Positions 1,487 through 54,020 of a stretch of DNA of 64,000 bases are shown here, in pieces. Under the pieces are notes generated by a model. It searched no databases. It saw only the letters and a list, made by a program, of their open reading frames with translations, and was not told where the DNA came from. The DNA lies in sequence record NC_047884.1, one strand, 5' to 3'. Source of the DNA: Escherichia phage saus132. The position numbers were made by a program, and so were the translations under genes. The first letter of the stretch is position 1. Each line of letters starts with the position of its first letter.

Positions 1487-1515
1487 TTGCTTTCGAGCTA
1501 AAACTTAGGTATAAT
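1487..1515 (+). promoter_or_regulatory. Early sigma70-type promoter
   Basis: TTGCTT, 17 bp spacer, TATAAT; upstream TTTATTTGCTTTC resembles the PN25 -35 region; RBS AAGGAGGG before ATG 1533. Confidence 0.5.
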
Positions 1516-1532
1516 TGTACAAGGAGGGCTAA

Positions 1533-2219
1533 ATGGTACGAAGGAAGTTAGATAAAGACACTATCAATAAAGATTTAGAGCCTAGAAGAATTAAGCTAAT
1601 AAGTGAGTATTCTGGAATCCTTAATAAAGGCACATTCATATGTAGTGTAGGTCATACATGGGAAGCTACTGTTAATAATGTAAGGAATAGCAAATCTGGC
1701 TGTCCAATATGCGCAGGTACTTTTAAACTTACTAAAGATTCGGTAAATGAAGGGTTACGTAGTAGGGGTATTACTCTTATTGGAGAGTATAAAAATAATG
1801 CTACTAAAACTCTTTTTGAATGTGAGCATGGGCATAGGTGGGAAGCCACAGTAGGCAATGTAAAGAATAAAAATTCTGGGTGTCCTGTGTGCGATACTGA
1901 TTGGAATACCCCTGGTTTTATATACATTATGTGTAGTAGTATGGGAACTAAAATAGGAATTAGTATCTCTCCTGAAAGACGGTGGAAAGAGATAGTTAAA
2001 AGCTCCAATATACTAGATTTATATATTTTTGGTGTCTATTCAATAGATTCTGGTACCAAATCTAAAAGTAGGTCTATCGAGAAACAGACTCATGAATATT
2101 TTTCAGAATATAGATTAAAGTATACAGGATTTGCTGGATGTACTGAATTCTTTGATATATCTCCCATAGCCGTAGAAAAGCACTTAATTAATAATGGGTG
2201 TATAAAGGTAGAAAAATAA
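1533..2219 (+). CDS. Putative GIY-YIG-like (T5orf172-type) nuclease with two N-terminal zinc-ribbon repeats
   Basis: Duplicated HxWEATVxNV...SGCPxC repeat; C-terminal GFIYIM...KIGIS segment; very AT-rich island. Confidence 0.5.
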   Translation: MVRRKLDKDTINKDLEPRRIKLISEYSGILNKGTFICSVGHTWEATVNNVRNSKSGCPICAGTFKLTKDSVNEGLRSRGITLIGEYKNNATKTLFECEHGHRWEATVGNVKNKNSGCPVCDTDWNTPGFIYIMCSSMGTKIGISISPERRWKEIVKSSNILDLYIFGVYSIDSGTKSKSRSIEKQTHEYFSEYRLKYTGFAGCTEFFDISPIAVEKHLINNGCIKVEK

Positions 2220-2284
2220 ATAAAGTACTTGCTTATATTACTTTTATTTGATATTATATTATTATAAATTAGAGAGGAGGGTGT

Positions 2285-2644
2285 ATGAAATTAAAACCAT
2301 TTATTGTTGTATCTAAACTAGGGCATTATCACGTAGGAGTAGATACAATTCAGGAAGCTATTTTTGCTGCTACAGGTGATTACTCATTACTAGAAGGTAT
2401 TGGGTATCCTACATTACTAGGAGACTTCGTAGAGCAAGAACTAGATATTACTGTCTATAATCCTATATATGAAGAACCTGAAGACTTAAAAGAGACTCTA
2501 GAATTTGTATACTGGAACCACTTACAAGTATTTAATGTTACCTCTAATGGCACAGAGGATTTCTCTTCTGCTATTAAGTATTATATTAAACAAGTTTACT
2601 ATGATTATTTCTATGAGGATATTGGAGCGGAGCTAAAAGTATGA
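2285..2644 (+). CDS. Hypothetical protein
   Basis: ORF with strong RBS GAGAGGAGGG upstream. Confidence 0.6.
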   Translation: MKLKPFIVVSKLGHYHVGVDTIQEAIFAATGDYSLLEGIGYPTLLGDFVEQELDITVYNPIYEEPEDLKETLEFVYWNHLQVFNVTSNGTEDFSSAIKYYIKQVYYDYFYEDIGAELKV

Positions 2645-2844
2645 AAAACGTAAAACATCTTAAGTATCGCTTAATTTACAACGGACGTATGGAAATAGAA
2701 GATCTAGCTCAGCTAGCGATCAATTCAGATGAAGTTACAGTTCGTGCTTTGTCCATCGAGAAGCTGCGTGCTTCTTACGAAAATCGTATTATGGAATTAG
2801 AGGAGAAACTTTATGGCATTCTCGAGTCAGAAGCTACCAGGTGA
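2641..2844 (+). CDS. Hypothetical small protein
   Basis: ORF start overlaps upstream stop (ATGA). Confidence 0.45.
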   Translation: MKNVKHLKYRLIYNGRMEIEDLAQLAINSDEVTVRALSIEKLRASYENRIMELEEKLYGILESEATR

Positions 2845-3058
2845 AAATGTTAGTCTTATTGATCTGAATAAGCTCAATCAAGAGTTTCAGGGAGTTTTAA
2901 TGAAGCACTGGGAAACTGGTTATAAGGATGGTGTTGAATCCTGTGCTACTATGCTAGAAGTTCTTGCTGATAACCTAGTGGAGAAAGGCAATAAAGAATT
3001 AGCTGAGCTGTTAGACAGTATTGGGCAAAACTTTAGAGAACAGGTGAAAAATGCGTAG
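2813..3058 (+). CDS. Hypothetical small protein (start uncertain)
   Basis: ORF in operon context; no motif recognised. Confidence 0.4.
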   Translation: MAFSSQKLPGENVSLIDLNKLNQEFQGVLMKHWETGYKDGVESCATMLEVLADNLVEKGNKELAELLDSIGQNFREQVKNA

Positions 3059-3902
3059 ACTAATCGTTGTTAGTGGTGCAGGTTTGAGTGTAGATAGTGG
3101 TGTTCGTGCTTTCCGTACTGATACTGCTAGTGGGAAATCCTTGTGGGATGAGTACGATCTAGAGGAAGTATGTAGCTTGCCTAACTTTGAAGCTGGCTTC
3201 CGTCGCTTCTGTGGTGAAGATGATCCTAACTACTTCAGTGCTCGTTTCCCTGGCATTGATGAAGATGGTAACGATCTGTATCTCAAGACTCATGAGTTCT
3301 ACAACATGCGTCGTCAGGAATTACAGACTGTTGAGCCTAACATTGCCCATCTGCGAATTGCAGAATGGTTCCAGCGTTATGGTGCGGATAGCGTGAAGAA
3401 CTTCACTACTAACGTTGATGACCTTCTGGAGCGCGCTGGTATCCCTCGTGATGAAATCATCCATGCTCACGGATACTTGAAAGAGGTGATCTATCGTCGG
3501 GGTCGCAATCAAATCATCGAAGATGTTGGATACACTGCAATTGTTCCTGAAGATTACGAATGGGTAAAACCAAACGTGGTGTTCTTTGGTGAAACAGCTC
3601 CGTGGTACATGGGTCAGATCAACCTGTTTGATACGCTTACTAGCAATGATATGGTTATTGTGGTGGGTTGTAGCAACCAAGTTATCAACTTCAACTGGGA
3701 ATTATTCCCTGCTGTATGTCGTGGAACTAAGATGATGGTTGTTAACCCTCAAGTTCGTTATGATGAACAGCTTGAGTATGAGAAACGTGGTGTTACTGTA
3801 TGGCGGGCTGGAGCTGCCGAAGTTTTTGGTAACAAGAATTTCATTGGTCAAGTAGAAGCCTTTATGGAAGGAACTATTTATGCACCGCAAGAGCATGTGT
3901 GA
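3051..3902 (+). CDS. Sir2-family (sirtuin-like) NAD-dependent enzyme lacking the zinc-ribbon cysteines
   Basis: Motifs VVSGAGLSVDSGVRAFR (GAGxS), TTNVD, catalytic HG, VVFFGE, VVGCS; no CxxC pairs between HG and FGE. Confidence 0.7.
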   Translation: MRRLIVVSGAGLSVDSGVRAFRTDTASGKSLWDEYDLEEVCSLPNFEAGFRRFCGEDDPNYFSARFPGIDEDGNDLYLKTHEFYNMRRQELQTVEPNIAHLRIAEWFQRYGADSVKNFTTNVDDLLERAGIPRDEIIHAHGYLKEVIYRRGRNQIIEDVGYTAIVPEDYEWVKPNVVFFGETAPWYMGQINLFDTLTSNDMVIVVGCSNQVINFNWELFPAVCRGTKMMVVNPQVRYDEQLEYEKRGVTVWRAGAAEVFGNKNFIGQVEAFMEGTIYAPQEHV

Positions 3903-4042
3903 TCTTTTAGTATGGCCGGACGGTAGTTGGTGCTACCGTTTCGAATTTGCTACCGATGACTTCTCATGGAAGAGTGATGATTTCTGCGTTATCTATGAGG
4001 ATACAGCAGAATGGAAAGAGTTCCTTATTAAGGAGGGAGAAT

Positions 4043-4228
4043 ATGGTGAAGAAGATTTTTAAGGGTATCTGGAAGGGTCTAGTATGGTTTGTCAACCTAA
4101 TTGGTATGATTACCATTTATTCTCTGTTCCTATCTGTTATGTGGGGTAAAGGTGAGCTGAAGGTTCCGGTTCCTTTTACTGATGAAGTTAAAGTCTGGAC
4201 GTGGGATGCTACTGGTGGAAATAAGTAA
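4043..4228 (+). CDS. Small membrane protein (61 aa)
   Basis: Strong RBS AAGGAGGGAGA before ATG 4043; single hydrophobic helix VWFVNLIGMITIYSLFLSVMW. Confidence 0.4.
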   Translation: MVKKIFKGIWKGLVWFVNLIGMITIYSLFLSVMWGKGELKVPVPFTDEVKVWTWDATGGNK

Positions 4229-4721
4229 TACTCCTGTGATTTTCCTGGATATTGATGGGGTACTCAATTCGAGCATCTCTCACCATCATGCTCTAGACAG
4301 TGAAAAGCTGTTCTTTGGCAGTGATTGGGTTTATAAGCCATTACTCCAGGTTTTTCAGAACTTTCTTAAACCCTCCCCAATAATGATTGTTGGGGTCTCT
4401 TCATGGTTTTCTGTACGAAATGAAATGGAGAACGTTCAGATTATGACCGGACTCGGTTTGATCGATCGTTTCCTTGGTACAACAGATTTTACTGGAGGTG
4501 GTTTATATCGGGGTAATTCTGTTTTACGTTTCGTCGAAAAACATAAGCTCAAGCATTGGTGTGTCTTAGACGATGCTGGTGCTATGATGTATCAATTTCC
4601 TACTGTTATTGTAAATGGCAGGACTGGAGTAAACCTTCAAGATTTAAATGCTATAAGCTATATGCTGGAATTTAGTCCAGATCTTGAAATGTGTAAGGCT
4701 CTTCAGAAACTTAAGGTATAA
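4206..4721 (+). CDS. HAD-superfamily phosphatase-like protein (start uncertain)
   Basis: N-terminal FLDIDGVLN (DxDGx motif I), later VLDD motif. Confidence 0.5.
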   Translation: MLLVEISNTPVIFLDIDGVLNSSISHHHALDSEKLFFGSDWVYKPLLQVFQNFLKPSPIMIVGVSSWFSVRNEMENVQIMTGLGLIDRFLGTTDFTGGGLYRGNSVLRFVEKHKLKHWCVLDDAGAMMYQFPTVIVNGRTGVNLQDLNAISYMLEFSPDLEMCKALQKLKV

Positions 4722-4723
4722 GC

Positions 4724-5152
4724 ATGTTCAATAATATTTTCATGAAAGAGGTAAATCCTATGCTCCTCAACTTCTGGCGTTCTCTCCCTAATGGTATGTA
4801 TAATGAAACCATCAATCTGCTTAAGATTTGGTGTGAGAATAATGATATCTTCTTATCCTTTAAAGGCCCACTAGAGGAAGCTCCATGTATTGGAGTTAGT
4901 GTGGATTTAGGTGAGGGAGTAGAAGAGATTGTAGACTGGAAAGAACTCGATGAAATGGGTCTGGTTTTTGCCTTAAATCATAAGCTGTTTATGCCTGCAA
5001 ATCACCGTCTTATTGTAAATTATCGCACTGGTGAAGCTCCTGCTTTCCAGGTAAATGAACGTGAGGGCTGGTCATATTCGCCCGAGGAAGTAAATGAGGG
5101 GATTCAGAAACTTCGTCGTTTCGGGTATATGATCCCAGGTTTAACTGCTTAA
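4724..5152 (+). CDS. Hypothetical protein, paralog A of a tandem pair
   Basis: Shares MGLVFALN...P...TGE...PGL pattern with the next ORF. Confidence 0.6.
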   Translation: MFNNIFMKEVNPMLLNFWRSLPNGMYNETINLLKIWCENNDIFLSFKGPLEEAPCIGVSVDLGEGVEEIVDWKELDEMGLVFALNHKLFMPANHRLIVNYRTGEAPAFQVNEREGWSYSPEEVNEGIQKLRRFGYMIPGLTA

Positions 5153-5161
5153 GGAGGCAGA

Positions 5162-5557
5162 ATGGAACAAGTATTTTGGCGTCAGATAGATCCTAGTTTG
5201 GTAGAGCGTGCTGAGGGGCTCCTTGCACGTTGGTTGGGGGTTGACAAGGTTAGTGTAACATTTCCGTTTACTTCTGTAACAGACCCTAGTGTAGGTGTCT
5301 TTGTGGACGAAGATGAAGATGATGGTTGGGAAGCTGACTGGAATGAATTGTCCAGTATGGGCTTGATTGTTGCCCTCAACTTCTCTATATTCCATCCACG
5401 TGGCTTAGCCATTACACGTGACCCCGAAACTGGTGAATCCCCTTATCTTTTGCAAGTAGAAGATGATATTTGGGAGTACACCGAAGATATTCTCGAAGAA
5501 GCTAAAGGTCAATTAAATCGCATTGGGATCTATGTTCCAGGCCTAAATGATGATTGA
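5162..5557 (+). CDS. Hypothetical protein, paralog B of a tandem pair
   Basis: MGLIVALNFSIFHP...TGESPY...VPGL aligns with the preceding ORF. Confidence 0.6.
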   Translation: MEQVFWRQIDPSLVERAEGLLARWLGVDKVSVTFPFTSVTDPSVGVFVDEDEDDGWEADWNELSSMGLIVALNFSIFHPRGLAITRDPETGESPYLLQVEDDIWEYTEDILEEAKGQLNRIGIYVPGLNDD

Positions 5558-5648
5558 TTTTCATTAGTCCAATCCTGATTACCGAGTCATTTTGGCTCGG
5601 TTTTCTCTGTGCTCAAAGACACTGATAGCACCTTCGGAAAAATTTTAC

Positions 5649-5678
5649 TTGCAGGATGCTCAAAATCTTGATATAATA
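5649..5678 (+). promoter_or_regulatory. Early promoter with extended -10
   Basis: TTGCAG, 18 bp spacer, TGaTATAAT, followed by conserved ATTTATATTGAATTGAGAGA downstream block. Confidence 0.5.
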
Positions 5679-6173
5679 TTTATATTGAATTGAGAGACAT
5701 TAGTAAAAATTGATTTTGCTAATTTTTCTTGTTTACAATCCGCAATACGGAACAGTTAGGCTGCCCCATTAAGGGTTGTTTTAACTATTACTAGTGTTTA
5801 TACTGCATTAGTTAATTATCAATTAAGTGATCTGCGTACCCTGAATTCGGAAAGGTAAATCCAAACCGTGCATATTTAGCTCGTTATATAGGCAGAGCTT
5901 TATATGGGGGTGCGAACGAAAAGAGCAGCGAATGGTGACACGTCCAGTAGCCACCTACCAATAGGATAGTGAGGGCAATCAGAATCGGCTTAGCGGCCAA
6001 TGACCTAGGTTCTGATCTGGATAAGAGTTAAGAGAGCGCAGCACTGAGGTATGATAACTTATTCATACTGCTTGATGATGATTAATGTTTGTGTAAATGG
6101 TAGTAATAGTTGTTCTATTCTTTTGAATAGTCCTAAAGAAAGATATCCGAATAACCAACATAGGAGTATTGTT

Positions 6174-8963
6174 GTGTTCTCAATCCTACAAGGTCACGCA
6201 GGATTTTCCAGAGATAAAGCCACTGGCATCTGGAAAGAGATCAAAGTGGAAGACTACACCTTTGCAAAGCGATTCTCTAAAGAGCATCCAGAAGGTAAAC
6301 CAGCTTCCATGCCCTTCAAATTTGATGTACTTGAAGAACTTGACCCGCAAAACCTTGCTGAAATGTTACCTATCATGCGTCGTCTTACCAAAGACCCGCA
6401 TATTGTAGCTATTCGTGGTAAATGTTTAGCTCCAAAAGATAATGTGCGTCGTACCAGAGGAAACTTTAATGTATCCAATCCTAGTCATATTATTGCTATG
6501 GACGTGGATGGTATTGTAGATACTGGTGGCTATGACAAGTTTAATCTTGTCGGCATGGCACGTCATATTATTAAGATGTTGAATAGTATTAGTGAGGATA
6601 TGTTTCCTCTTGATGCAGGGTTTATTGCTCATGCATCGTCTTCGGCTGGCTTAAAACCAGGTATCCGAATGCACTTAATGCTAGAATCTAATGTCAAGGT
6701 AACGCAGGGGCAATTAAAATTCCTATTTACATCCATCAATGACAGTAGTAAGCAAAAGTATGGCTTTGATATTGCTGACTTAGCTTATTATTCTTCTGTT
6801 CAGCTTCACTATTTCGCAGATCCCTTATTTGATGATGGTATAGTCGATCCGTTTAAAGCGGAGAATAAACCACGTCTTGTGTATGTTAAGGGTTCGAAAG
6901 TGAATCTACCCAATAACCTAGTTGACTTTGAAACAACTAGAGGTGAGTTTAAAGAAGAATTCTACTCCTTACTTGACCAAATTAAAGGCAAGAAGGCTGC
7001 ATCTGATAAAGTGGAAGAAACCATCAGCGAACTAGAAGAAGCTGAGGATGGGGTGTACCTGCGTATTATCCCAAAACTTTATCACAGAGCGTTAGAAGAT
7101 GGTGTTGACTTTACGTGGTTAGAACGTGAGATTAAACCAGCTTTATCTGAGTATATTGCGACTAAAGATAATAGTCGTAATATTCAAGATTACTTTAATA
7201 ACGGTCGTAAGCAGGCTCTCAAAGCCTTTGTAAATAACTCCAAACGTGAGATTCCACCAAACTTAAAAGGTGTACCATTAAAACGTCTAGACACAGATTC
7301 TCCACCAGAAGTTCCATACCTGAAAATTAACATTGTACCACCAAAAGGACATTTAACATTTGTTAAGGCAAGTCTTGGTACGGGTAAAACTACAGCAGTA
7401 ACTAAGTGGCTAGATGCAGGTGTTCTTCCAGGGAACTTTATTGCAATCACAAATACTAGGGCACTTGTATCTTCTAACGCGAAGAAATTCGGTGCTGGCC
7501 AGTATGATAAGTCAGTTGATATGCTGAACTTCAAACGTGGTGCTATTGATCGTATGTCTTCAACTATTCACTCTATCCATAAGTTCAAGAGCTTTGTGGG
7601 TCAGATTGATACGATCTTTATTGATGAATGTGATGCAGTAATGAACGATCTGTTATTCGCTCCGGTTGTTAAAAACCGTCGTGAATGTATTCAGGTTCTT
7701 CGTGATATTCTTATTACTGCAAAAACGGTGATCTTATCTGATGGGGATATCAGTGCAGAAACGATTGAAGCCTATGGTTCTTTGATTGATTTTGATAAAC
7801 CGGTTGCGTTCTATAATCATCACCGTAAAATGCTGGCAAAAGCTCATGCTTATGAATTCCCTGACGAATCCAGTATTTGGGTTGCACTTCAAACATCTCT
7901 AGAGATGGGTGAGAAGTCAATCCTAGTATCTGACTGTGGACCAGATGAACTGAATGAAAAGGGAATGGCATTACGTCGTAATACGGGTGCGTTAGTTAAA
8001 GAAATTCACTCAAACTCTACGTCTGATGTAGATATCCGTCGTATTCTGGATTATACAACTAATGAGCTAATTGATCAACAGATTGATTGTTTGTTATGTA
8101 GTCCATCTGTAACGAGTGGTGTTGACTTTAACTATTTTGATAACGTATTCGTAATCACTAGAACCTCAAACCAAGCGCCAAACATGCGTTTTCAAGCAAT
8201 CAGGCGCGACCGTGGTGCTCAGAACATTTATTATTTTATTGATAAATCTACGAGTGGATTTTCTGCGGGTTCCGAGCAATATAATATTGACGAAGGTTGG
8301 ATTGAGTTAGCCCAACAACTGTACGCACGTCGCCGTGAGCTGGAATCTAGAAACTATACCAGTACTTTGCGTTATTATCTTCTCGATCAAGGTGCAACTA
8401 TCGATATTTTCAGCGAAAGCTGGGGAACTATCGAAGGTGCAGGCAAAGAGTATATAGAAGAGCGAATCAAAGCTATTTTGCACTCAACTCCTGAATATTG
8501 CGCACCACGTCATGCAGACGCCTATGAAGCCAAGTTACTTCTGGTTCGCTATTATCATCTGGATTCTATTAAAGATGTAATAGTGGAACACGTTGAACAG
8601 TATATTAAGGATAAACCAAACGATAGAGCTGCATTCTTCCATAAGATGCACGACATGTTCTGGGAAGATATTAAAAAGTGTTCAAACGTAACAATCAAAC
8701 CGTTTATCGAAGCTCTTAAGAATAAGAAGAAGGATTTCTTCCTTAAGACAGGTCAGAGCGCTAACCCAAAATATGCTCGTATGTATCTTGGCATGATGGG
8801 TATCGGTAAAGATCTGGATACGGAAAAGATTGTGGACTGGTACAGAACTTACTGTAAGATCGAATGTATGCCGATTCCAGTTAAGTTTATGACAGATGAA
8901 GAACGTCAGATGCATGAGGAAGCTCTTGCTGAATTGGGGGCTAGAAATGACAGCGAAGAATAA
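6174..8963 (+). CDS. Putative replication initiator / origin-binding-type helicase-like ATPase
   Basis: Walker A SLGTGKTT, Walker B FIDECD; start placed at GTG 6174 (RBS AGGAG 7 nt upstream) instead of track start 6051. Confidence 0.6.
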   Translation: MFSILQGHAGFSRDKATGIWKEIKVEDYTFAKRFSKEHPEGKPASMPFKFDVLEELDPQNLAEMLPIMRRLTKDPHIVAIRGKCLAPKDNVRRTRGNFNVSNPSHIIAMDVDGIVDTGGYDKFNLVGMARHIIKMLNSISEDMFPLDAGFIAHASSSAGLKPGIRMHLMLESNVKVTQGQLKFLFTSINDSSKQKYGFDIADLAYYSSVQLHYFADPLFDDGIVDPFKAENKPRLVYVKGSKVNLPNNLVDFETTRGEFKEEFYSLLDQIKGKKAASDKVEETISELEEAEDGVYLRIIPKLYHRALEDGVDFTWLEREIKPALSEYIATKDNSRNIQDYFNNGRKQALKAFVNNSKREIPPNLKGVPLKRLDTDSPPEVPYLKINIVPPKGHLTFVKASLGTGKTTAVTKWLDAGVLPGNFIAITNTRALVSSNAKKFGAGQYDKSVDMLNFKRGAIDRMSSTIHSIHKFKSFVGQIDTIFIDECDAVMNDLLFAPVVKNRRECIQVLRDILITAKTVILSDGDISAETIEAYGSLIDFDKPVAFYNHHRKMLAKAHAYEFPDESSIWVALQTSLEMGEKSILVSDCGPDELNEKGMALRRNTGALVKEIHSNSTSDVDIRRILDYTTNELIDQQIDCLLCSPSVTSGVDFNYFDNVFVITRTSNQAPNMRFQAIRRDRGAQNIYYFIDKSTSGFSAGSEQYNIDEGWIELAQQLYARRRELESRNYTSTLRYYLLDQGATIDIFSESWGTIEGAGKEYIEERIKAILHSTPEYCAPRHADAYEAKLLLVRYYHLDSIKDVIVEHVEQYIKDKPNDRAAFFHKMHDMFWEDIKKCSNVTIKPFIEALKNKKKDFFLKTGQSANPKYARMYLGMMGIGKDLDTEKIVDWYRTYCKIECMPIPVKFMTDEERQMHEEALAELGARNDSEE

Positions 8964-9180
8964 AAAGTGGGAAACAAGGAAGTTTCCCGTAAAAGAACGT
9001 AAAACTTCTGTTTACGATACTGCGGAGAAACTATGTAGGGTTGTACCACCTCGTCTCGCGGGCATCCCTAACGTCTCCATATGGTTACTTAAACAACGGA
9101 AGACTCGTGTGTCTCTTCGCATTGGCTTTGAGTTAGATAAAGTCTATGCTGAACTTGCTTCTTTGCTCAAAGAATCGTAA
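8947..9180 (+). CDS. Hypothetical small protein
   Basis: ORF overlapping end of upstream gene; start set at internal ATG. Confidence 0.35.
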   Translation: MTAKNKKWETRKFPVKERKTSVYDTAEKLCRVVPPRLAGIPNVSIWLLKQRKTRVSLRIGFELDKVYAELASLLKES

Positions 9181-9188
9181 AAATTTAT

Positions 9189-9217
9189 TTGCTTTCAGAA
9201 AAATTTTTCTGTATAAT
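9189..9217 (+). promoter_or_regulatory. PN25-like strong early promoter
   Basis: AAATTTATTTGCTTTCAG-AAAATTTTTCTGTATAATAGATTCATAAATTTGAGAGAGGAG matches the published T5 PN25 sequence (from memory) almost base for base. Confidence 0.8.
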
Positions 9218-9248
9218 AGATTCATAAATTTGAGAGAGGAGTTTAAAT

Positions 9249-9953
9249 ATGGCTGGTTCTCGTAGAAAGAAACTTATCCATGAAATCCCTGATGAAACCT
9301 TTAAAAAGGTTATTGAACATCTAGAGAATGGTGGTACTAAGAAAGCAGCATGTGAAATGCTCGGCGTTTCTTCTAACCCAACTATGGAACGAATGATCGA
9401 GGAATGGAGAGATCGTCAGGTTCAAGTTGCGGAAATGAAAAAGAAGAAGCGCGGAACACTGATTGAAGGTGTTGAGCTTGCAAACGTAATTGAACAGTAT
9501 CTTTCTGGTGATTCTTTTGAAGAAATCGCTGATCGTAATTATCGTTCTGTAGCGATGATTAAATCTGTTCTAGAACGTTACGGTGCTCTGCTTCGTTTAA
9601 ATGATACTGTTGATCCATTGAATCCTCCATTGATTCCTGATGATGCAATGGCAGAGGAATTTGAAGTTGGTGAACTTGTTTGGGTTCCTGGCTATCAGTG
9701 TATTGGTGAAATCAAGAAAGCAATGACTAACCCAGTTGGTTGCTATCGTGTTTGGTTGTTATCAGAAGGTAAACAACAGAACGTTCACTATATGCACTAC
9801 GAATTAGCTTCTGTTAAACATCTGGAAAAGCTGGGAGTTGATGTTAAAGCTCTTGGCTTTAAATGGAGCCGTGAAGAAGTTATCACGTTGGTTAATGAAG
9901 CTGTTAAAGCTGCACTGAAACTCGATAAAGAGAAAGGAAAACGCCGTGAGTAA
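9249..9953 (+). CDS. Putative DNA-binding protein (N-terminal HTH)
   Basis: GGTKKAACEMLGVSSNPTMERMIEEW helix-turn-helix-like segment; directly downstream of PN25-like promoter. Confidence 0.55.
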   Translation: MAGSRRKKLIHEIPDETFKKVIEHLENGGTKKAACEMLGVSSNPTMERMIEEWRDRQVQVAEMKKKKRGTLIEGVELANVIEQYLSGDSFEEIADRNYRSVAMIKSVLERYGALLRLNDTVDPLNPPLIPDDAMAEEFEVGELVWVPGYQCIGEIKKAMTNPVGCYRVWLLSEGKQQNVHYMHYELASVKHLEKLGVDVKALGFKWSREEVITLVNEAVKAALKLDKEKGKRRE

Positions 9954-10200
9954 ACTAACTGATCTGTTAAAAGCTGGAGACGTAAAATATCTCCAGCGAG
10001 ATAGCTGGGAAAATAATACTTATTCTACCACTATCATCAAAGTAGATGTTGATAATAACAACATTATAGAATTTACTTGGTGGTGGTCTAAAGATGGGCG
10101 CACTAAACCCACGCTAGACGATGCATCGTGGAAAACCACTGAGCTAACTCTAGACGAAGCCCTAGCTGACGATTGGGAGATCGTTGAACTAGATGTGTAG
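9946..10200 (+). CDS. Hypothetical protein
   Basis: ORF overlapping upstream stop. Confidence 0.5.
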   Translation: MSKLTDLLKAGDVKYLQRDSWENNTYSTTIIKVDVDNNNIIEFTWWWSKDGRTKPTLDDASWKTTELTLDEALADDWEIVELDV

Positions 10201-10220
10201 CAGTTACTGAAAAATTTCAG

Positions 10221-10249
10221 TTGCTCAATCCTATAATTCTTGATATAAT
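10221..10249 (+). promoter_or_regulatory. Early promoter
   Basis: TTGCTC, 17 bp spacer, TGaTATAAT. Confidence 0.45.
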
Positions 10250-10307
10250 ATTCTCATAGTTTGAAAGAACTATTCTGTTTAATTCTTAATTAAGGAAATT
10301 CAAAAAT

Positions 10308-10718
10308 ATGACTACTCCAACTCAGTGGACTGATGAACTGTTCGAAAAAATGTCTTCCGATTACGTTGCTCGTATGGAGCAATTCCCAGAAGATGAGCGT
10401 CCGGGCGTTAGCATGGAAATTGTTAGCGAAATTGCTCAGGAAAATGGTGTAACTCCGAACGGTTTCCGTATGAAGCTGACCAAAGCAGGTCTGTATATCA
10501 AGAAAGCTGCTGGCTCTACTTCTAAATCAAGCGCATCTACTGGAGAAAAAGCTTCTGGTGGTTCTCGTACTTCCAAAGCTCAGGCTCACTCCGATCTTCG
10601 CTCTGCATTCTCTGATGCTGGCTTAGCACCGGACTTCCTGGACGACGCAATCATCGACAAGCTGACTGGTAAAGCAGCTGCTCATCTGGCAGAAGCTATC
10701 AGAGCTATCACTAAGTAA
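10308..10718 (+). CDS. Hypothetical abundant early protein
   Basis: Codon usage of highly expressed host genes (ctg, cgt, gct, tct), distinct from AT-rich neighbours. Confidence 0.6.
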   Translation: MTTPTQWTDELFEKMSSDYVARMEQFPEDERPGVSMEIVSEIAQENGVTPNGFRMKLTKAGLYIKKAAGSTSKSSASTGEKASGGSRTSKAQAHSDLRSAFSDAGLAPDFLDDAIIDKLTGKAAAHLAEAIRAITK

Positions 10719-10754
10719 TTCTTAGATAAATCCACCAACACAAGGAATACAGTT

Positions 10755-11051
10755 ATGAATAAAGCTGAAATTATTGCTCAATGCGAAAAATTTGGTGAGT
10801 TTTATCTTCATTACGAAAAACTTCGTCAGAAAGGAACCACGTATCTTCAGGGTACGATGGAATTTGATCCAGCTCAGGATAAATACCTGGCTGAGCGTAT
10901 TAAACGTGAGCGCATCCGTAAGCCGAAAGAGGATGAAATCCTCGTTTTCTCTCGTACTAACGATAGCTTCCGTTTCATTCCTGTTGCGAAAGTTCGCCGT
11001 GTGACGAGCCTCCAGTCAGAGTTAGATCGTGCTTCTCCAGTAGGCCGATAA
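10755..11051 (+). CDS. Hypothetical protein
   Basis: ORF with RBS AAGGAA; followed by terminator. Confidence 0.55.
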   Translation: MNKAEIIAQCEKFGEFYLHYEKLRQKGTTYLQGTMEFDPAQDKYLAERIKRERIRKPKEDEILVFSRTNDSFRFIPVAKVRRVTSLQSELDRASPVGR

Positions 11052-11061
11052 GAAACCAATT

Positions 11062-11083
11062 AGCCCCTATATGGGGCTTTTTG
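11062..11083 (+). terminator. Rho-independent terminator
   Basis: AGCCCC-tatat-GGGGCT followed by TTTTT. Confidence 0.6.
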
Positions 11084-11101
11084 TGTATTTGGGATATGTA
11101 A

Positions 11102-11410
11102 ATGAGCGATCAGGTAAATCAAAACTATGAAGGACACGTTGACGACCAGTCCATCATGCTTTGGGAGAAGGAGGGGGAACAAGTAAGACTAACCGTATCT
11201 GAATTTCGTGGGAATCTATACATGGGAATTCGTTACTGGCTCCAAGATATTACTGGAGAGTGGTTTCCAACGAAATCCGGCTTCTCTTTTCCTTATACCC
11301 TAGAAACTACATCACAGCTATTCTACGCTTTTACGCAAATCCTCAGTGAATCCGAGGTCTTGCATGAAGTACAGAAACGAGCTGAAGAACTCAAAGCCAA
11401 GAATGCCTAG
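11102..11410 (+). CDS. PC4-like single-stranded DNA-binding protein
   Basis: VRLTVSEFRGNLYMGIRYWLQD...PTKSGFSF resembles the PC4/Sub1 ssDNA-binding fold signature. Confidence 0.6.
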   Translation: MSDQVNQNYEGHVDDQSIMLWEKEGEQVRLTVSEFRGNLYMGIRYWLQDITGEWFPTKSGFSFPYTLETTSQLFYAFTQILSESEVLHEVQKRAEELKAKNA

Positions 11411-11423
11411 TTCTTGGCTTTTT
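11395..11423 (+). terminator. Rho-independent terminator
   Basis: GCCAAGAA-tgcctag-TTCTTGGC followed by TTTTT. Confidence 0.55.
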
Positions 11424-11438
11424 CTTTATAAATGTACT

Positions 11439-11466
11439 TGCTTTCATCCCTATTTTCTTATATAAT
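11439..11466 (+). promoter_or_regulatory. Early promoter
   Basis: TTGCTT, 16 bp spacer, TATAAT, then TAGTTATATAAATTAATGAGAGGGG block. Confidence 0.5.
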
Positions 11467-11495
11467 AGTTATATAAATTAATGAGAGGGGTGAAT

Positions 11496-11768
11496 ATGAA
11501 AAAGATAAAAATAAGTCCACTTAAACCTTTACCGTACATAGGACAGTCTTTAGTTCTTTCCTGGGAAGAAAAGCTCAATGGAGAGAAGGTACGTATGGTT
11601 CGACAGGGGTATAAACTTATATCTCTCGCTTACGAAGCAAACACATTAGTTGCTGATATTTACTCTCCAATAACTCAAAGAGTGGGAAGTACTACCTATC
11701 TTTGCTTATGTAAGAACTTTACATGGCAGGGGGATACTATTCAGCCTAAAGCATATGAGGTACAGTAA
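11496..11768 (+). CDS. Hypothetical protein
   Basis: ATG 11496 behind RBS GAGAGGGG (track start 11481). Confidence 0.5.
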   Translation: MKKIKISPLKPLPYIGQSLVLSWEEKLNGEKVRMVRQGYKLISLAYEANTLVADIYSPITQRVGSTTYLCLCKNFTWQGDTIQPKAYEVQ

Positions 11769-11963
11769 ATGGCAATAACACTTCCAAAGATTCAAGCAAA
11801 ACTTAATTTGCTCTCCATAGCAAGAATCAATTACCAGGATAGTATCGGCACTCCAAACCAGAAAGCGTACAAAGATGCGTGGTTGAAAGAAGCTGCTGAT
11901 TTAGCTGGTATGGCTGCGCAGTATAGTAAAGAACTCAAAATGGAAATCGCAGATGATGAATAA
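11769..11963 (+). CDS. Hypothetical small protein
   Basis: ORF abutting upstream stop. Confidence 0.45.
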   Translation: MAITLPKIQAKLNLLSIARINYQDSIGTPNQKAYKDAWLKEAADLAGMAAQYSKELKMEIADDE

Positions 11964-12927
11964 TGTAAAAGACTTTATTAAACGTTGTCAAGAAGCGTAC
12001 TACCAGGGAATGAGTCTTATTTCCGATGAAGAATATGATCGTCTGATTAAAAGATTCCCACTAGAGGAAGAAATCGGACCGAAAGGTGATATCCCTCATT
12101 TGTATCGTATGTATTCTTTGCAGAAAGTCTATTACGATCGTGGTGATAAAGCTCCATTCAACCCACTTGGTCAGGTTGAAACTGATAAGTTAGATGGTTG
12201 TGCGATTTCTCTATTATATATTAATGGTGAATTTATTCAAGCGTTAACTCGTGGTAACGGTATTCTAGGGAATGATGTAACGCATAATGTTAAAATGCTG
12301 AACATCCCTAAAACTATCTCCCAAAAAGTTCCAACTCAAATCACTGGTGAAGTTCTCATCACTAAAGAAGTAGAGAACAAACGTAACTATGCTTCCGGTG
12401 CTATTAACTTGAAAGATAGTGATGATTTCATGCAACGTATTGGTGAAGGTGGTTTAATCTTCGTTGCATATGGTATCCAGTGTTCAGCGGAAACAGTCGG
12501 TATTACAGAAGCCTATTTAAAAGATATGCTTTGGCTAGAGAATGAGAACTTCTTGACAGTTGTTAATGTTCGTTCCTTCTTTAAGTGGATTCCGACGGAT
12601 GGTAAAGTTGTTCGTATTAATGATAACAACAAATTCTTCCGTGAAGGTTGGACTAATAAATTTCCTCGCGGTGCATTTGCTATTAAAGAGGATGAAGAAG
12701 GCGAAATTACCACACTTGTTAAAGTTGAATGGCAAGTAGGGGCTTCTGGTAAAGTAACTCCAGTTGGTTATTTCGAACCGGTGATTATTGATGATGCCAC
12801 AATCGTTAAAGCAACTCTTAATAACGTTGATTATATTAACGCTCTCGATTTAGAGATCGGTTGCCAGATTCGAGTGATTCGTGCTGGTGGTGTAATCCCT
12901 TGTATAGTAGAGCGAGTATACGACTAA
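11953..12927 (+). CDS. NAD-dependent DNA ligase, N-terminal (adenylation) part of a split gene
   Basis: Adenylation motif KLDGCAISLLY (KxDG) in LigA-like context. Confidence 0.85.
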   Translation: MMNNVKDFIKRCQEAYYQGMSLISDEEYDRLIKRFPLEEEIGPKGDIPHLYRMYSLQKVYYDRGDKAPFNPLGQVETDKLDGCAISLLYINGEFIQALTRGNGILGNDVTHNVKMLNIPKTISQKVPTQITGEVLITKEVENKRNYASGAINLKDSDDFMQRIGEGGLIFVAYGIQCSAETVGITEAYLKDMLWLENENFLTVVNVRSFFKWIPTDGKVVRINDNNKFFREGWTNKFPRGAFAIKEDEEGEITTLVKVEWQVGASGKVTPVGYFEPVIIDDATIVKATLNNVDYINALDLEIGCQIRVIRAGGVIPCIVERVYD

Positions 12928-12977
12928 TTCGTAACCCTTTGCTACCCGTTTACCATGTCGGAATTATAAAGTGGTTA

Positions 12978-13006
12978 TTGACATTTTCGCCGCTTAGGTA
13001 TATACT
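12978..13006 (+). promoter_or_regulatory. Near-consensus sigma70 promoter between the two ligase ORFs
   Basis: TTGACA, 17 bp spacer, TATACT. Confidence 0.55.
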
Positions 13007-13070
13007 ATTATCATTCAGTTGAGGGATAGAAAGTTATGGCGAGGGTAAGCAAAGTTAGTTAAAATTGTAG

Positions 13071-13099
13071 TTGCTAAATGCTTAAATACTTGCTATAAT
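13071..13099 (+). promoter_or_regulatory. Early promoter before ligase C-terminal ORF
   Basis: TTGCTA, 17 bp spacer, TGcTATAAT, then ATTTATATAAATTGATAAGGAAG. Confidence 0.5.
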
Positions 13100-13129
13100 A
13101 TTTATATAAATTGATAAGGAAGAAATTTG

Positions 13130-13909
13130 ATGAAAATCGAAATTCCAACACAATGTCCCTCTTGTGGTTCTAAGCTAGATCTTGTCAACGGGCAATTATT
13201 CTGTAGGAATAAGTCCAACTGTCCAGCACAATCAAGTAAGTTAATCGAGAACTTCTGCACAAAAATGAAGTTAAAGGGCTTTGGCCCGAAAACTATTGAG
13301 AAGCTGGAACTGACTAAGATCTCAGAACTGTTTTACCTGACCGAAGAAGATTTGGTCGGAGCTGTGGGTAGCAAGGTTGCCGCTAAGTTGATTAGCGAGT
13401 TAAATACTAAGGTTCGCGGAGACATTGACTTTGGTTCGGTTCTCGGTTCTTTAGGAATTCCTCTTATTGGAGAGGTTGCAGCAAAGAAACTGTCCCAAAA
13501 TTGCACTAGCTTCCACGATGTGAAGGCTGACGGCAAGGCTGGAGAAAATTACAAAACCTGGCTAAATTCCCCACAAGGCAAGGATGTTATTGAATTACCA
13601 TGGAAATTCTCAACTGGTATTCGAGGTACTAAAGCTGATATCATCATTACGGATGATTTAGTTGCCCAGCCAAATGGAATCACGATCTGTATTACCGGAT
13701 CTTTGCAAGATTTTGCAAATCGAACGGATGCAACAAACTATTTAGAAAGTCTAGGATATACGGTTAAGAAATCCGTTACCAAAGACGTCAAATACCTAAT
13801 CTGTGAGGATGAATCAAAACGTTCTTCCTCATCTTATAAGAAAGCCGAAACGAATGGGATAGAAATCCTGTCGATTAAAGAACTATTGGAGAAAAATAAT
13901 AATGTCTAA
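13130..13909 (+). CDS. NAD-dependent DNA ligase, C-terminal part (zinc finger, HhH, BRCT-like)
   Basis: CPSCGSKL...CRNKSNCPAQ Cys4 zinc finger; GIPLIGEVAAKKL HhH-like; C-terminal BRCT-like region. Confidence 0.85.
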   Translation: MKIEIPTQCPSCGSKLDLVNGQLFCRNKSNCPAQSSKLIENFCTKMKLKGFGPKTIEKLELTKISELFYLTEEDLVGAVGSKVAAKLISELNTKVRGDIDFGSVLGSLGIPLIGEVAAKKLSQNCTSFHDVKADGKAGENYKTWLNSPQGKDVIELPWKFSTGIRGTKADIIITDDLVAQPNGITICITGSLQDFANRTDATNYLESLGYTVKKSVTKDVKYLICEDESKRSSSSYKKAETNGIEILSIKELLEKNNNV

Positions 13910-14669
13910 ACTGAACTGGAACGTAGAAGGTGTAACCGAGTCTCTGAAAGCAAAAGCCACTGCTCTGGGTGTTGCTGTAATCTCTCAAGAACAAGTAGCT
14001 GCTATCGCTGCTGAACTGGCTACCGAGACTGGTAAAGACGTTACCGCTCGCTCTGTTGGCTCTAAGCTGCGTAAAGAAGGTTTCGAAGTACAGAAAGCTA
14101 ACGAAGTACAGAAATCCCCGTGGACTCCTGAGCAGGAAGCTGAACTAGTTGATTTCCTGAACGCTCATGCTGGTCAGTATACTTACGCTGAAATCGCTGC
14201 TGCTGTAGCTGGTGGTCAGTTCGGTGCTAAGCAGGTACAGGGTAAGATCCTGAGTCTGGAAATGACTGCTTCTGTTAAGCCAACTGAAAAAGCTGCTGCT
14301 GTTCGTTCCTTCACTCCTGACGAAGAAACTGATTTCGTTAATCAGGTTGTTGCTGGTGCTACTATTGAAGCTATCGCTGCTCACTTCGGTCGTAATATTA
14401 AGCAGATCCGTGGTAAAGCTCTGAGCCTGCTTCGTGAAGGTCGTATCGCTGCTATGCCGGTACAGGAAACATCAAGTGCTAAGACTCGTGAAGATCTGTT
14501 AGAAGGTCTGGATCTGGCTTCCATGACTGTTGCAGAAGTTGCTGAGAAAACTGGTAAGTCTGAGCGCGGTGTTAAATCTATGCTGTCTCGTCGTGGTCTG
14601 GTTGCTAAGGACTATGATGGTGCTGCTAAGCGTGCTAAACTGGATGCAAAAGCTGCGGCTGCTGAATAA
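13902..14669 (+). CDS. Alanine-rich protein with three HTH-like repeats; likely abundant DNA-binding protein
   Basis: Three repeats of the pattern aEIAAxxG...KQIxGKxLSL; high-expression codon usage. Confidence 0.55.
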   Translation: MSKLNWNVEGVTESLKAKATALGVAVISQEQVAAIAAELATETGKDVTARSVGSKLRKEGFEVQKANEVQKSPWTPEQEAELVDFLNAHAGQYTYAEIAAAVAGGQFGAKQVQGKILSLEMTASVKPTEKAAAVRSFTPDEETDFVNQVVAGATIEAIAAHFGRNIKQIRGKALSLLREGRIAAMPVQETSSAKTREDLLEGLDLASMTVAEVAEKTGKSERGVKSMLSRRGLVAKDYDGAAKRAKLDAKAAAAE

Positions 14670-14684
14670 TCTGGTAAATTAAAC

Positions 14685-14720
14685 CTAAGGGGAGGGGGCT
14701 ATGCTCCTTCCCCTTTTTGC
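14685..14720 (+). terminator. Rho-independent terminator
   Basis: AAGGGGAGGGGG-cta-tgCTCCTTCCCCTT followed by TTTTT. Confidence 0.6.
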
Positions 14721-14751
14721 ATTTAGAAGGCACGAAAGCGTGCAAAGGAGA

Positions 14752-17111: not shown

Positions 17112-17112
17112 T
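17083..17112 (+). promoter_or_regulatory. Promoter upstream of DNA polymerase, -10 overlapping primase stop
   Basis: TTGCCG, 18 bp spacer, TATAAT (contains the primase TAA). Confidence 0.45.
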
Positions 17113-17173
17113 ATATTGGTAAGTTAGAGAAGAAACACTGAAGTTATACTTACTTACCAAAAGGAGACTAAAT

Positions 17174-22106: not shown

Positions 22107-22114
22107 AATTGCAT

Positions 22115-37227: not shown

Positions 37228-37256
37228 TATTATAATAGGATTGGAAAATTTTATCA
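37228..37256 (-). promoter_or_regulatory. Sigma70-like promoter upstream of distal tail protein gene
   Basis: Minus strand TTGATA, 17 bp spacer, TATAAT, then RBS AAGAGGAG. Confidence 0.4.
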
Positions 37257-37284
37257 AGAAATTTTTATTTTTCCATAAAGAAAA

Positions 37285-51692: not shown

Positions 51693-52174
51693 TATCTCTT
51701 ACCTCCTCCTGCTAGAGCGGTAATAAGATTCATATAGTTTTCGTCACCACTTCCAGCAATAATATTATTCTGAATATTAGTCTGGTTAGCCGGAGTACGG
51801 GCTGCTGCCTTCACTTTCTCCAGTTCTACCATCATTTTCATTTCTTCCATCTTCATCTTGTGCGCCTTCCAGAGAATATCCATGATATCCTGGTCAGAAC
51901 CCATGCCAGTTTCTTCGAGTTCTTCCAACTTGCGTTTGATAACTTCATCAAGAACTCCGAATAAGCGGTCACGATTACGGAAGCCGCTTTCCATAAAGAT
52001 ATCGTTGAGATAGTTTTTAACTTCCCCACGATTCATTATATCACGAAATGCAATCTCGGACATTCCAAGACTACGAGCGGCGGCAGGAACATCACTACCA
52101 CACTGTAAATAGGCTTCAATAACATCCATGCCTTCGGGAGACATGAGATCGGGAACTAATACATCATTTGCCAT
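51692..52174 (-). CDS. Putative terminase small subunit
   Basis: 160 aa ORF coupled upstream of TerL; HTH-like [16 protein letters not shown]. Confidence 0.55.
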
Positions 52175-52184
52175 ATATCCTCCT

Positions 52185-53966
52185 TTAGGTTAGGCGTTGA
52201 ACTGTTACACGTAGTCTTGGCAAGAAAACAGCTGCCGCTTCTGCAGCGTGAATGATAACACCCAACTCAACGTTGCCATTACCAAGGTTTTTAATAGTAT
52301 AAATATATCCGTTCCTACGGAAAGCAAACTCATCAGGCCTACTAGCCCAAGTTTGTGTATAACTATAGGAAGTTGTACTGTGATAAGGTACTAGATATCC
52401 AGGTGGCAGAGTAAGAATCTGGTGGAATACACCATCACCAGCAGTATAACTTTGTTGCCGTCTACCTTGTACCTGCCAAGCACTACCTCCGTAAGTACGC
52501 ACAGGCATTCCAGCAGTATTAAGATTACCCATAATAACTTCAGTAGTTAATATAACAGTAGAGTGAGCATTCGGTAATCCCAACCAAACTGTGGCCAAAG
52601 GTGTGTAGAAGTCACCAGCACCAGGGTAGGATGGAGTTATATCGTCCCCTACATAAGTACTTGCAACGTTGCCTGGGAATAACCTGAGGGGTACAGTACT
52701 AGGACTCCAGACAGGTCCATGTTCATTACCAATGGAGTTGGTATTAGTATCTACATACCATTGTTTACCTACACCAAATTTATATAAGCTAATTTGAGAA
52801 GCTGCACCCCCATAGTTAACAGGAGACCACAATCCGCCATTACTAGAGCCGATAAATTCACATCGTGCAGTATTATCACCAAAAACTCCGGTATACGCAG
52901 CGTTATTACCAACATACTCCATATCAGGGCGATAGCCTAAGTTTCCGAAAGCATTCTGGTTAATAAATTTATAGCCTGTATTTGGTAGGCTAACACCTTT
53001 AATAGTAAAGTTAGATGGAGATATTAAGATATCTGAACCGGTAAATGGATTACCAGAAACTCCCATACTACCATTAGAATAGCGCAGATTTAGTACATAC
53101 CAAATAACCTTAGTTGGCGTAACGTTGTACCAGTCCTGTACATATACCTTTCTAGTGGCTTGCGCAGCCATATTAGTTGTAGAACCCCTACAAACGTATA
53201 CTTTAGTAGGAAAGGAGGGGGATTGGTAGTTAATGTTTACGTTATCTGGTAGTACGCCTTTTTTACCTGCGAAGCCACGAATATTAGAACTACAAACATA
53301 AAACCAATCATGGCCTCTACCAGCAGAACCAATAGGCGCCTGCCAGTTAGGATCCCAATAATCAGCGTTACCACCATCTAAAGGAACAGTAGAGACACCA
53401 GTTGGAAAACCCATAAGACTCCAGGCTCTGGCAATGGCTTCACCAGCAGGAACACCACCAGGTCTAAAGATCTGGAAACCAGAGGACTGTAGTAAACTGC
53501 CTCCAGAACCTTGCCTAGCAATAGATTCCTCATGACCAAGACCACCATTATAGATATAAGTACCATGAGCTAAACTATCCCCGATCGCAAAAGCAGATGT
53601 TACAGATAATTCAGCACCAGCACGTGGTGGGTCTTCAAAAAATGATAAGAACTGGCCAACCTGAGATTGAGTACCATTGAGGAATCCTCTATGAGTACCG
53701 TTTATCTCAATAGCAGTTAATATAACTCTACCTGGATCATTGGATTTAATATTTATAATATCCCAAGGCATCTGAGTAACAAAGTATCCATTACCTGCAT
53801 TACCTAGGGCTGCTTCATAAGTCCCATCAACCAGGACGAAAGGCATATCGGAGTGGAAAATACTATTAGTATTTGGAGAATAGTGCTCACCAGTATCACC
53901 ACCATTAGCAGCATTTAGAGATAATACAGTTTTACCATCACTAAATTTTCCTGCGAAAAAACTCAT
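52185..53966 (-). CDS. Receptor-binding protein (T5 pb5/oad-like)
   Basis: N-terminus MSFFAGKF...[20 protein letters not shown] resembles remembered pb5 start; Gly/Asn/Tyr-rich; divergent lipoprotein gene alongside. Confidence 0.7.
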
Positions 53967-53991
53967 ACAATCTCCTTCTTTAAAAATGTAT

Positions 53992-54020
53992 TTGCTTAGA
54001 TCCCTCTATTTTGCTATAAT
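53992..54020 (+). promoter_or_regulatory. Early-type promoter driving the lipoprotein gene
   Basis: TTGCTT, 17 bp spacer, TGCTATAAT, then ATATTTATAAATTAAACAGAGGAAC. Confidence 0.55.

Follow-up and report, generated by a model that had tools for sequence, protein, structure and literature searches.

Introduction

P-N25, a promoter of bacteriophage T5, is among the most studied bacterial promoters, serving both as a standard model for abortive initiation and promoter escape and as the source of the 'T5 promoter' in expression vectors. It belongs to a family of very strong early promoters, and this family, its early class, its named members and the functional role of the transcribed region, which boosts promoter output, were all established in the 1980s. 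Gentz and Bujard reportedly pointed out explicitly in 1985 that homologies exist beyond the classical promoter region. T5 promoters were mapped in vitro (Gentz & Bujard 1985, as cited in PMC7472727). The T5 DNA polymerase promoter (Ppol) and P15A are active early in vivo, as determined by primer extension, coming on after second-step transfer and going off as the late genes are switched on (PMC7472727), and an ATATT discriminator is common to all known T5 early promoters (PMC7472727; Klimuk 2020). Here we analyze this promoter family in 64,000 nucleotides (nt) of Escherichia phage saus132 (NC_047884.1), a stretch referred to below as the window. An earlier note on the window had listed eleven early promoters with an extended -10 element and a conserved downstream block.

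Much of what is known about the transcribed region comes from N25 itself. This promoter forms very fast and stable open complexes, and its rate limit is promoter escape (PMC12464699). The N25 initial transcribed sequence (ITS) raises productive RNA ∼10-fold over a transversion variant through faster promoter escape (PMC12464699). Replacement of +3 to +20 (the 'antiDSR' variant; DSR, downstream sequence region) lowers full-length RNA ∼10-fold and yields more abortive products (Kammerer 1986, as cited in PMC12464699 and PMC5961368). The authors' conclusion in PMC12464699, citing Kammerer 1986 and Hsu 2003/2006, is that the native N25 ITS evolved to speed escape. More generally, a purine-rich ITS correlates with productive yield (PMC10911233; PMC5961368), and pyrimidine-G (YG) steps near +6 are associated with initiation pauses and slower escape (PMC5961368).

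Results

Genome context

A 6-kb piece of the window was 100% identical to MF431736.1 (Bacteriophage T5-like chee130_1). The window corresponds to positions 57987-121986 of that record, that is, the right-hand 64 kb of the genome with the right terminal repeat included. The phage belongs to the genus Epseptimavirus, family Demerecviridae. No promoters are annotated in MF431736.1, which carries genes only. Two T5 reference records were used for comparison: NC_005859.1, which contains 46 'promoter' features of ∼75 nt each, and AY587007.1.

Identification of the promoter family

The eleven listed positions were aligned on the TATAAT box and converted to a position weight matrix (PWM) spanning -46 to +15, and the best score in 20 shuffled windows was taken as the null. 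Ten of the eleven proved to be members, scoring 43-64 bits (5672, 9212, 10244, 11461, 13094, 17107, 22138, 22239, 54015 and 61055) against a null maximum of 14 bits. The remaining one, at 1510, is not a full member, since it has the core TTGCTT-17-TATAAT and lacks the block. The matrix also recovered an eleventh member that the list had overlooked, at 2252 (37.7 and 29.8 bits). All 11 are on the + strand, the coding strand of the early genes, and the nine with T5 orthologs (see below) directly precede replication or early genes. The exact string TATAAT-N6-ATAAATT occurred 7 times in the window, always on the + strand, and with up to 2 mismatches it had 18 matches where 7.9 ± 2.5 were expected; none of 100 shuffles reached 18. 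Two matches were dropped as chance: a minus-strand site at 23453 that scored 20.7 bits with the downstream-only PWM and had no promoter core, and a T5 match at 76824 (-) with AATAAT and 22.7 bits.

The members and the block-less core, given as position in the window, strand and description, are the following.

2218-2283, + strand: member 2252; TATTAT at 2252-2257, +1 at about 2264, ITS ATAAATTAGAGAGGAGG; an ATG at 2285 (+22) opens the T5.100 ortholog.
5638-5703, + strand: member 5672; block variant 'ATTGAAT', -10 at 5672-5677, +1 at about 5684; ortholog of T5 promoter 58999-59073, 97% identical.
9178-9243, + strand: member 9212, ortholog of P-N25; -10 at 9212-9217, discriminator AGATTC, +1 at A 9224, ITS ATAAATTTGAGAGAGGAGTT; ATG at 9249 (+26) of a D2 helicase-like gene.
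10210-10275, + strand: member 10244, ortholog of P-N26; -10 at 10244-10249, ITS ATAGTTTGAAAGAAC; 52-nt leader with its own Shine-Dalgarno (SD) sequence (AAGGAAA) and ATG at 10308 (D3).
11427-11492, + strand: member 11461; -10 at 11461-11466, +1 at about 11473, ATG at 11496 (+24); ortholog of T5 promoter 65284-65358 (T5P35, 'repeat b').
13060-13125, + strand: member 13094, ortholog of P-K28a, 100% identical over 195 nt; -10 at 13094-13099, TGC extended -10, ITS ATAAATTGATAAGGAAG; ATG at 13130 (+25) of a DNA ligase B subunit.
17073-17138, + strand: member 17107, ortholog of the T5 pol promoter ('Ppol'); -10 at 17107-17112, TGG extended -10, ITS GTAAGTTAGAGAAGAAAC; 55-nt leader with a hairpin and a separate SD (AAGGAGA); TTG start of DNA polymerase at 17174.
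22104-22169, + strand: member 22138, ortholog of P31A; -10 at 22138-22143, ITS ATAAATTTGAGAGAGAAAG; 'repeat c copy 7' in AY587007.
22205-22270, + strand: member 22239, ortholog of P31B; -10 at 22239-22244, ITS ATAAATTGATGAGAGAC, ATG at 22272 (+22).
53981-54046, + strand: member 54015; -10 at 54015-54020, TGC extended -10, ITS ATAAATTAAACAGAGGAAC, ATG at 54050 (+24) of a lipoprotein (llp/Cor-like) gene; positional ortholog of T5 promoter 110349-110423, ∼71% identical.
61021-61086, + strand: member 61055; -10 and block in the right terminal repeat, with a left-repeat duplicate at record position 5772 (∼5738-5803).
1476-1541, + strand: core without block; TTGCTT-17-TATAAT, -10 at 1510-1515, then TGTACAAGGAGGGCTAAATG.

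Because the block was present in these first matrices, selection was redone on the upstream core alone, which avoids circularity. The core-only matrix covered -46 to -7, with the null maximum as threshold. It was applied to the window, to bases 1-50,000 of the same genome, to the whole of T5, and to 40 kb of a Klebsiella T5-like phage. A block was called when ATAAATT with at most 2 mismatches and a purine run stood in the exact register. This was the case at 65 of the 81 core-selected sites, against a background of 0.5% per position, and several of the others had the block offset by one base or an ATTGAA variant. Family members number 11 in the window, with 13 more that are not duplicates in bases 1-50,000 of this genome, 25 in T5 and 11 in the 40 kb of Klebsiella phage vB_Kpn24-P2.

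Architecture of the promoters

The shared cassette is ∼66 bp long. It consists of an A-tract from -46 to -38, a TTGCT(T/A) -35 element, a 17-bp spacer, TATAAT, an A/T discriminator, ATAAATT from +1 to +7, and a purine run whose typical form is (T)GA(T)GAGAG. The A-tract (consensus AAAAaTT) has an information content comparable to that of the -35; at 1510 and 11461 a terminator upstream contributes its T-run in place of the A-tract. Nine members have TTGCx or a one-substitution variant of it as -35 (TTGGCA at 22138, TTGTCA at 22239), at 17-18 bp spacing. The -10 is TATAAT in all 11 members except 2252, which has TATTAT. Discriminators across all members are ATATT/ATATTT, ATTTAT or AGATTC. From -12 to +7 the promoters are 93% A/T, compared to 60% genome-wide.

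The extended -10 TGnTATAAT, given by the earlier note as common to the sites, is present in 6 of the 11 members (2252, 5672, 10244, 13094, 17107 and 54015). Three further members have G at -13 only (CTG TATAAT rather than TGn). Among 60 family members, ∼40% have the TGn extension, the remainder showing either a G at -13 or neither feature. By itself, TGnTATAAT shows no enrichment in the window (8 occurrences, 4.4 expected; 10 of 100 shuffles reach 8), so that the extended -10 is not the defining trait of the family. A generic TTGACA/TATAAT scan of positions 1-20,000 was likewise not enriched (39 matches, 49 expected) and listed just two members; generic scans miss the family because the TTGCT -35 scores poorly against TTGACA.

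Orthology to T5 promoters and specificity for the early class

Nine window sites map one-to-one by BLAST onto promoter features of NC_005859.1, the pairs being those listed above for 5672, 9212, 10244, 11461, 13094, 17107, 22138, 22239 and 54015. Identity to the T5 counterpart is 86-100% for eight of the nine and ∼71% at 54015. In AY587007.1 the same places are labelled 'putative early promoter T5P33-T5P38'. The 'repeat c' (TGTATAATAGATTCATAAATTTGAGAGAG) and 'repeat b' (TATAATATTTATATAAATTAATGAG) annotated inside early promoters in that record are the downstream block. The 9212 site corresponds to 'T5P33' with 'repeat c', and window 9178-9243 is essentially the textbook P-N25 sequence; its +1 was taken from the N25 -12/+2 oligonucleotide TATAATAGATTCAT (PMC7472727). 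The designation of the sites as early promoters is borne out by this orthology to promoters annotated in both T5 records, and by the early activity of the pol promoter in vivo (PMC7472727).

The following orthologs of T5 promoters outside the family lack both the TTGCT -35 and the block.

12967-13030, + strand: ortholog of P-K28b (∼13001), TTGACA-17-TATACT, no ATAAATT block.
37200-37280, - strand: ortholog of the late promoter P-G25 (∼37234), TTGATA...TATAAT attgtt ATTAAGAGGAG.
About 44431, - strand: ortholog of the late promoter P-J5.
About 60169, - strand: ortholog of the pre-early promoter P-H22.

Two layers in the transcribed block

The earlier note had the conserved block run into the SD sequence and so include the ribosome binding site. 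This applies to 6 of the 11 window members, in which the block doubles as SD and the ATG lies at +22 to +26 (2252, 9212, 11461, 13094, 22239 and 54015). At the other five (5672, 10244, 17107, 22138 and 61055) leaders are 52 to >360 nt long and the block does not act as SD. The 81 core-selected sites were split into 47 short-leader sites, with ATG at +19 to +32, and 34 others, comprising long leaders, tRNA and stable-RNA genes and a few block-less sites. ATAAATT is kept in both groups, and purines at +9 to +14 still reach frequencies of 0.82-0.94 in the 34. G at +15 to +17, in contrast, has a frequency of 0.49-0.68 in the short-leader group and 0.12-0.18 in the others. Since both groups keep +1 to +14, the segment from +1 to about +14 belongs to the promoter, and a G-rich tail is added where an SD is needed. 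The window contains no Rfam family at the gathering threshold, so that the leaders are not known RNA elements.

These results bear on the idea that the block is conserved solely as a 5' leader and ribosome binding cassette, an A/U-rich enhancer followed by an SD, with selection acting on translation and not on transcription. The short-leader sites, with a G-rich +13 to +18 at the proper SD distance, fit such a cassette. So does the lack of structure in these short leaders, since over their first 45 nt the transcripts show no unusual folding (mean z = -0.45). Members with leaders of 52 to >480 nt, or before tRNA and stable-RNA genes, nevertheless keep ATAAATT and the purine run and lose the GG core. 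The T5 promoters P13b, P15b and P16-17, which serve tRNA and stable-RNA genes, retain ATAAATT where there is no translation. Moreover, the long-leader members 10244 and 17107 have a separate SD beside the start codon, the most constrained part of the block (+1 to +7) is not an SD, and in N25 antiDSR it is the yield of RNA in vitro that is affected (PMC12464699). We consider an origin in translation alone very unlikely.

Selective constraint and distribution

Substitutions were compared between this phage and T5 in 27 ungapped ortholog pairs, which gives a rough estimate. Changes per site were 0.000 in the -10 hexamer, 0.016 at +1 to +7, 0.062 in the -35 hexamer, 0.105 in the discriminator, 0.114 in the A-tract, 0.116 at +8 to +14, 0.173 at +15 to +20, 0.179 in the spacer and 0.293 at +21 to +40. 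The +1 to +7 segment is thus the most conserved after the -10, evolves more slowly than the -35 hexamer and is under purifying selection. The suggestion that the initial transcribed region is under selection is upheld by this low rate, and by the ∼10-fold loss of RNA with N25 antiDSR (PMC12464699; PMC5961368).

The architecture extends well beyond the two phages. Klebsiella phage vB_Kpn24-P2 (PP848848.1) has the same arrangement, and its sole similarity to the N25 region detectable by megablast is a paralogous promoter copy before a different gene. The Vibrio T5-like phages JSF10 and 70E37-4, with DNA polymerases only 51-58% identical, have a TATAAT-agattc-ATAAA(g/t)T-purine architecture. Its presence in Klebsiella and Vibrio T5-like phages indicates that the block is conserved across Demerecviridae subfamilies and hosts.

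If the copies were alike only as recent duplicates or a recombining cassette, that is, repeats by descent with no selection downstream, the whole -50 to +20 unit would be expected to be similar among paralogs, as it is. The 1510/2252 pair also shows that gene insertion can split or duplicate a cassette. Between orthologs, however, divergence in the spacer and flanks is 10-fold faster than at +1 to +7. The information content is concentrated in discrete elements rather than spread evenly, and the architecture is still present in Klebsiella and Vibrio phages, although their coding DNA can no longer be aligned. Descent without selection is accordingly given almost no credence.

Within the block, the +1 to +7 segment contains no YG step. 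In members of the ATTTAT|ATAAAT type ('repeat b'), a perfect 12-bp palindrome, ATTTATATAAAT, spans the discriminator and bases +1 to +6, with the start site at its centre. It occurs at 13100-13111 and ∼11467-11478, with a variant at 5678-5689, and is absent in the N25/'repeat c' subtype. The palindrome may be a by-product of A/T-only sequence.

Interpretation of the conserved block

The sites are very probably early-class sigma-70 promoters of a T5-like phage, used by unmodified host RNA polymerase (RNAP), with a conserved ITS that promotes escape and, in some members, an added SD layer. Recruitment of host RNAP would rely on the UP-like tract, the -35 and the -10. The polymerase would be held so firmly that escape becomes the slow step at these promoters, leaving their output to be set by the transcribed sequence. 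The nearly all-A/T segment from -12 to +7 (discriminator plus ATAAATT) would ease melting and scrunching. ATAAATT, pause-free in having no YG before +7, together with purine-rich nascent RNA would then favour productive escape. In this scheme +1 to about +14, ATAAATT plus a purine run that is usually GA(T)GAGAG, may be regarded as the promoter layer. Where the gene starts at +21 to +28, the G-rich 3' part of the purine run (GAGG/GGAG, +13 to +18) would serve as SD of a minimal, unstructured leader of ∼25 nt. The transcription start, the early timing and the ∼10-fold effect of the N25 transcribed region are taken from the literature; that the same escape mechanism operates at every member, and its physical rationale in melting and hybrid stability, we infer.

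Several points weigh against this interpretation. Start and timing are transferred to this phage by orthology from T5, the start A of ATAAATT being known from the literature for N25 only, and functional ITS experiments concern N25 only and were mostly done in vitro or on plasmids. A T-G step is present at +7/+8 in 43% of members, and such steps near +6 are reported to slow escape, so 'optimal for escape' is too simple a description of the block. Because the ortholog pairs were aligned without gaps, mismatches in the flanks are overcounted; T5 is a near relative of this phage, and neither paralogs nor orthologs can be treated as independent samples. A signal at the protein or RNA level would equally lead one to expect purifying selection on ATAAATT. 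Finally, the 61055 site has a poor -35 and no nearby gene.

One alternative is a class tag, in which discriminator and ATAAATT mark the early promoters for a phage factor (gpT5.026, the D5 DNA-binding protein or an unknown repressor) that shuts off early transcription at the early-to-late transition. In favour of such a tag, only early-class promoters have the block, +1 to +7 is under stronger constraint than the -35, and the palindrome ATTTATATAAAT of 'repeat b' has the start site at its centre. The protein gpT5.026 binds RNAP and weakens its contacts to -5/+2, lowering affinity for this non-template segment of N25, and damps early transcription; loss of gpT5.026 raises early transcripts ∼5-fold (PMC7472727). 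The mechanism of the T5 temporal switch is stated as unknown in the same paper. On the other side, no sequence-specific binder is known, and the in vitro effect of gpT5.026 was not strong (PMC7472727). N25/'repeat c' promoters do not have the palindrome, and A/T-only palindromes easily arise by chance. The known effect of the ITS on host RNAP alone accounts for the constraint. A class tag in place of an effect on escape is therefore highly improbable. It is somewhat less improbable, and still a long shot, that ATAAATT in addition to tuning escape is a recognition tag by which gpT5.026-modified RNAP, D5 or another protein shuts off the whole early class. If true, this would explain the early-to-late switch of T5-like phages.

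At the RNA level, the AUAAAUU 5' end could affect stability or processing of early mRNA, as an entry point for RNase E or a pyrophosphohydrolase, and thereby contribute to the clearance of early messages. All transcripts of the class would begin with the same kind of unstructured, A/U-rich end, and the block is kept before RNA genes, where translation is irrelevant. The 5' leaders of tRNA precursors are removed anyway, though, and the discriminator is not transcribed and yet is conserved together with the block, which points to a role at the DNA level. An RNA signal is for these reasons exceedingly unlikely, and promotion of escape by the conserved ITS remains our preferred explanation.

Observations at individual promoters

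The 1510 and 2252 sites flank a 228-aa open reading frame (ORF; 1533-2219) that is absent at this position in T5. The -10 of 1510 is followed by TGTACAAGGAGG and the ATG of this ORF. The upstream half of 1510 is 91% identical to T5 promoter 55708-55782 as far as the -10, and the downstream half of 2252 aligns to the same T5 promoter. The ORF contains a DUF4379 treble-clef zinc finger, CapR, and MUG113/T5orf172 nuclease-like domains, the T5orf172/MUG113 domain being presumably GIY-YIG-like. It looks as if a mobile nuclease-like gene has inserted into, or duplicated, the promoter cassette.

Hairpins resembling intrinsic terminators were found at 1452-1476, 5581-5601 and 11393-11421, upstream of promoters 1510, 5672 and 11461. 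The T-run of the terminator is immediately next to the promoter at 1510 and 11461 and also serves as the upstream A/T tract, giving compact terminator-promoter modules; at 5672 the hairpin lies ∼36 nt further upstream of the promoter. The untranslated leader of 5672 is at least 367 nt long and precedes a replication-origin-binding/helicase gene (6051 or 6174 to 8963). A search of 5600-6100 for repeats in this leader gave only short, chance-level repeats and no iterons.

Two ORFs that start behind family promoters with a good SD are unannotated in MF431736.1: 11496-11768 (90 aa, start at +24) after 11461, and 22272-22634 (120 aa) after 22239. In the pol leader (17116-17174) an inverted repeat, UUGGUAAGU...ACUUACCAA, lies directly before the pol SD and draws the extreme 5' terminus of the RNA into pairing; it is only modestly better than shuffled sequences (z = -1.7). 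The start of the P31A transcript (22150-22215) contains a stable hairpin at 22168-22195, GUUUCGGAUU...AGUCCGAAGC (-14 kcal/mol, z = -4.6). It is followed by the second family promoter, P31B, in a tandem arrangement with P31B 101 nt downstream of P31A.

The site in the terminal repeat

Of all members, 61055 is the one whose standing as a working promoter is least certain. The site is located in the pre-early region, has a weak -35 (TAGCCA) with an 18-nt spacer, and is followed by no ORF for >300 nt. Its motif is kept in T5 (TATAAT aactgc ATAAATTAG), where neither NC_005859.1 nor AY587007.1 annotates a promoter.

The 61055 site is directly upstream of paired DnaA boxes at 61132/61144 (3 bp apart) and of another at 61193. 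DnaA boxes are not enriched window-wide (25, 18 expected), and their clustering is confined to the terminal repeat. The two clusters, 61132-61201 (+) and 63449-63530 (-), hold all three perfect TTATCCACA matches of the window, with pairs 3 bp apart. They are the already described IRC/IRD and IRD'/IRC' regions, a proposed injection stop signal (Davison preprint 10.1101/866236).

Comparison with known systems

The family can be recognised from raw sequence alone, and its rediscovery adds no new biology. What is added is minor: the two-layer block, the slower evolution of +1 to +7 than of the -35, the extension to Klebsiella and Vibrio phages, and the oddities at 1510/2252 and 61055. They could help in choosing natural ITS variants for studies of escape and lead to better annotation of promoters.

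The early promoters of phage T4 are another host-sigma-70 family with conservation beyond the hexamers, in upstream A-tracts and extended regions, and outcompete host promoters. In T4 the additional conserved positions are mostly upstream and have a link to ADP-ribosylation of the RNAP alpha subunit; a conserved transcribed block is a T5 speciality. The 'T5 promoter' of the commercial pQE-series expression vectors, derived from P-N25, shares its core with window 9212. The vector version is engineered, with inserted lac operators and a synthetic ribosome binding site.

The closest described system is the set of T5 early promoters, including P-N25, P-N26, P-K28a, P-H207, P31A/B and P15a, which have the same elements in the same register as the family described here, the ATAAATT(T)GAGAGAGG block included. 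Compared to T5, this phage belongs to another genus, Epseptimavirus, and T5 promoter 55708 is represented here by the block-less core 1510 and the full promoter 2252, flanking the nuclease-like gene. Identity with the best-studied transcribed region is complete, as window 9224-9243 (ATAAATTTGAGAGAGGAGTT) equals the N25 DSR/ITS from +1 to +20 (Kammerer et al. 1986; Hsu lab N25/N25anti). The N25 DSR experiments concern one promoter, whereas the family-wide +1 to +14 core with its optional SD layer described here comes from comparison among members.

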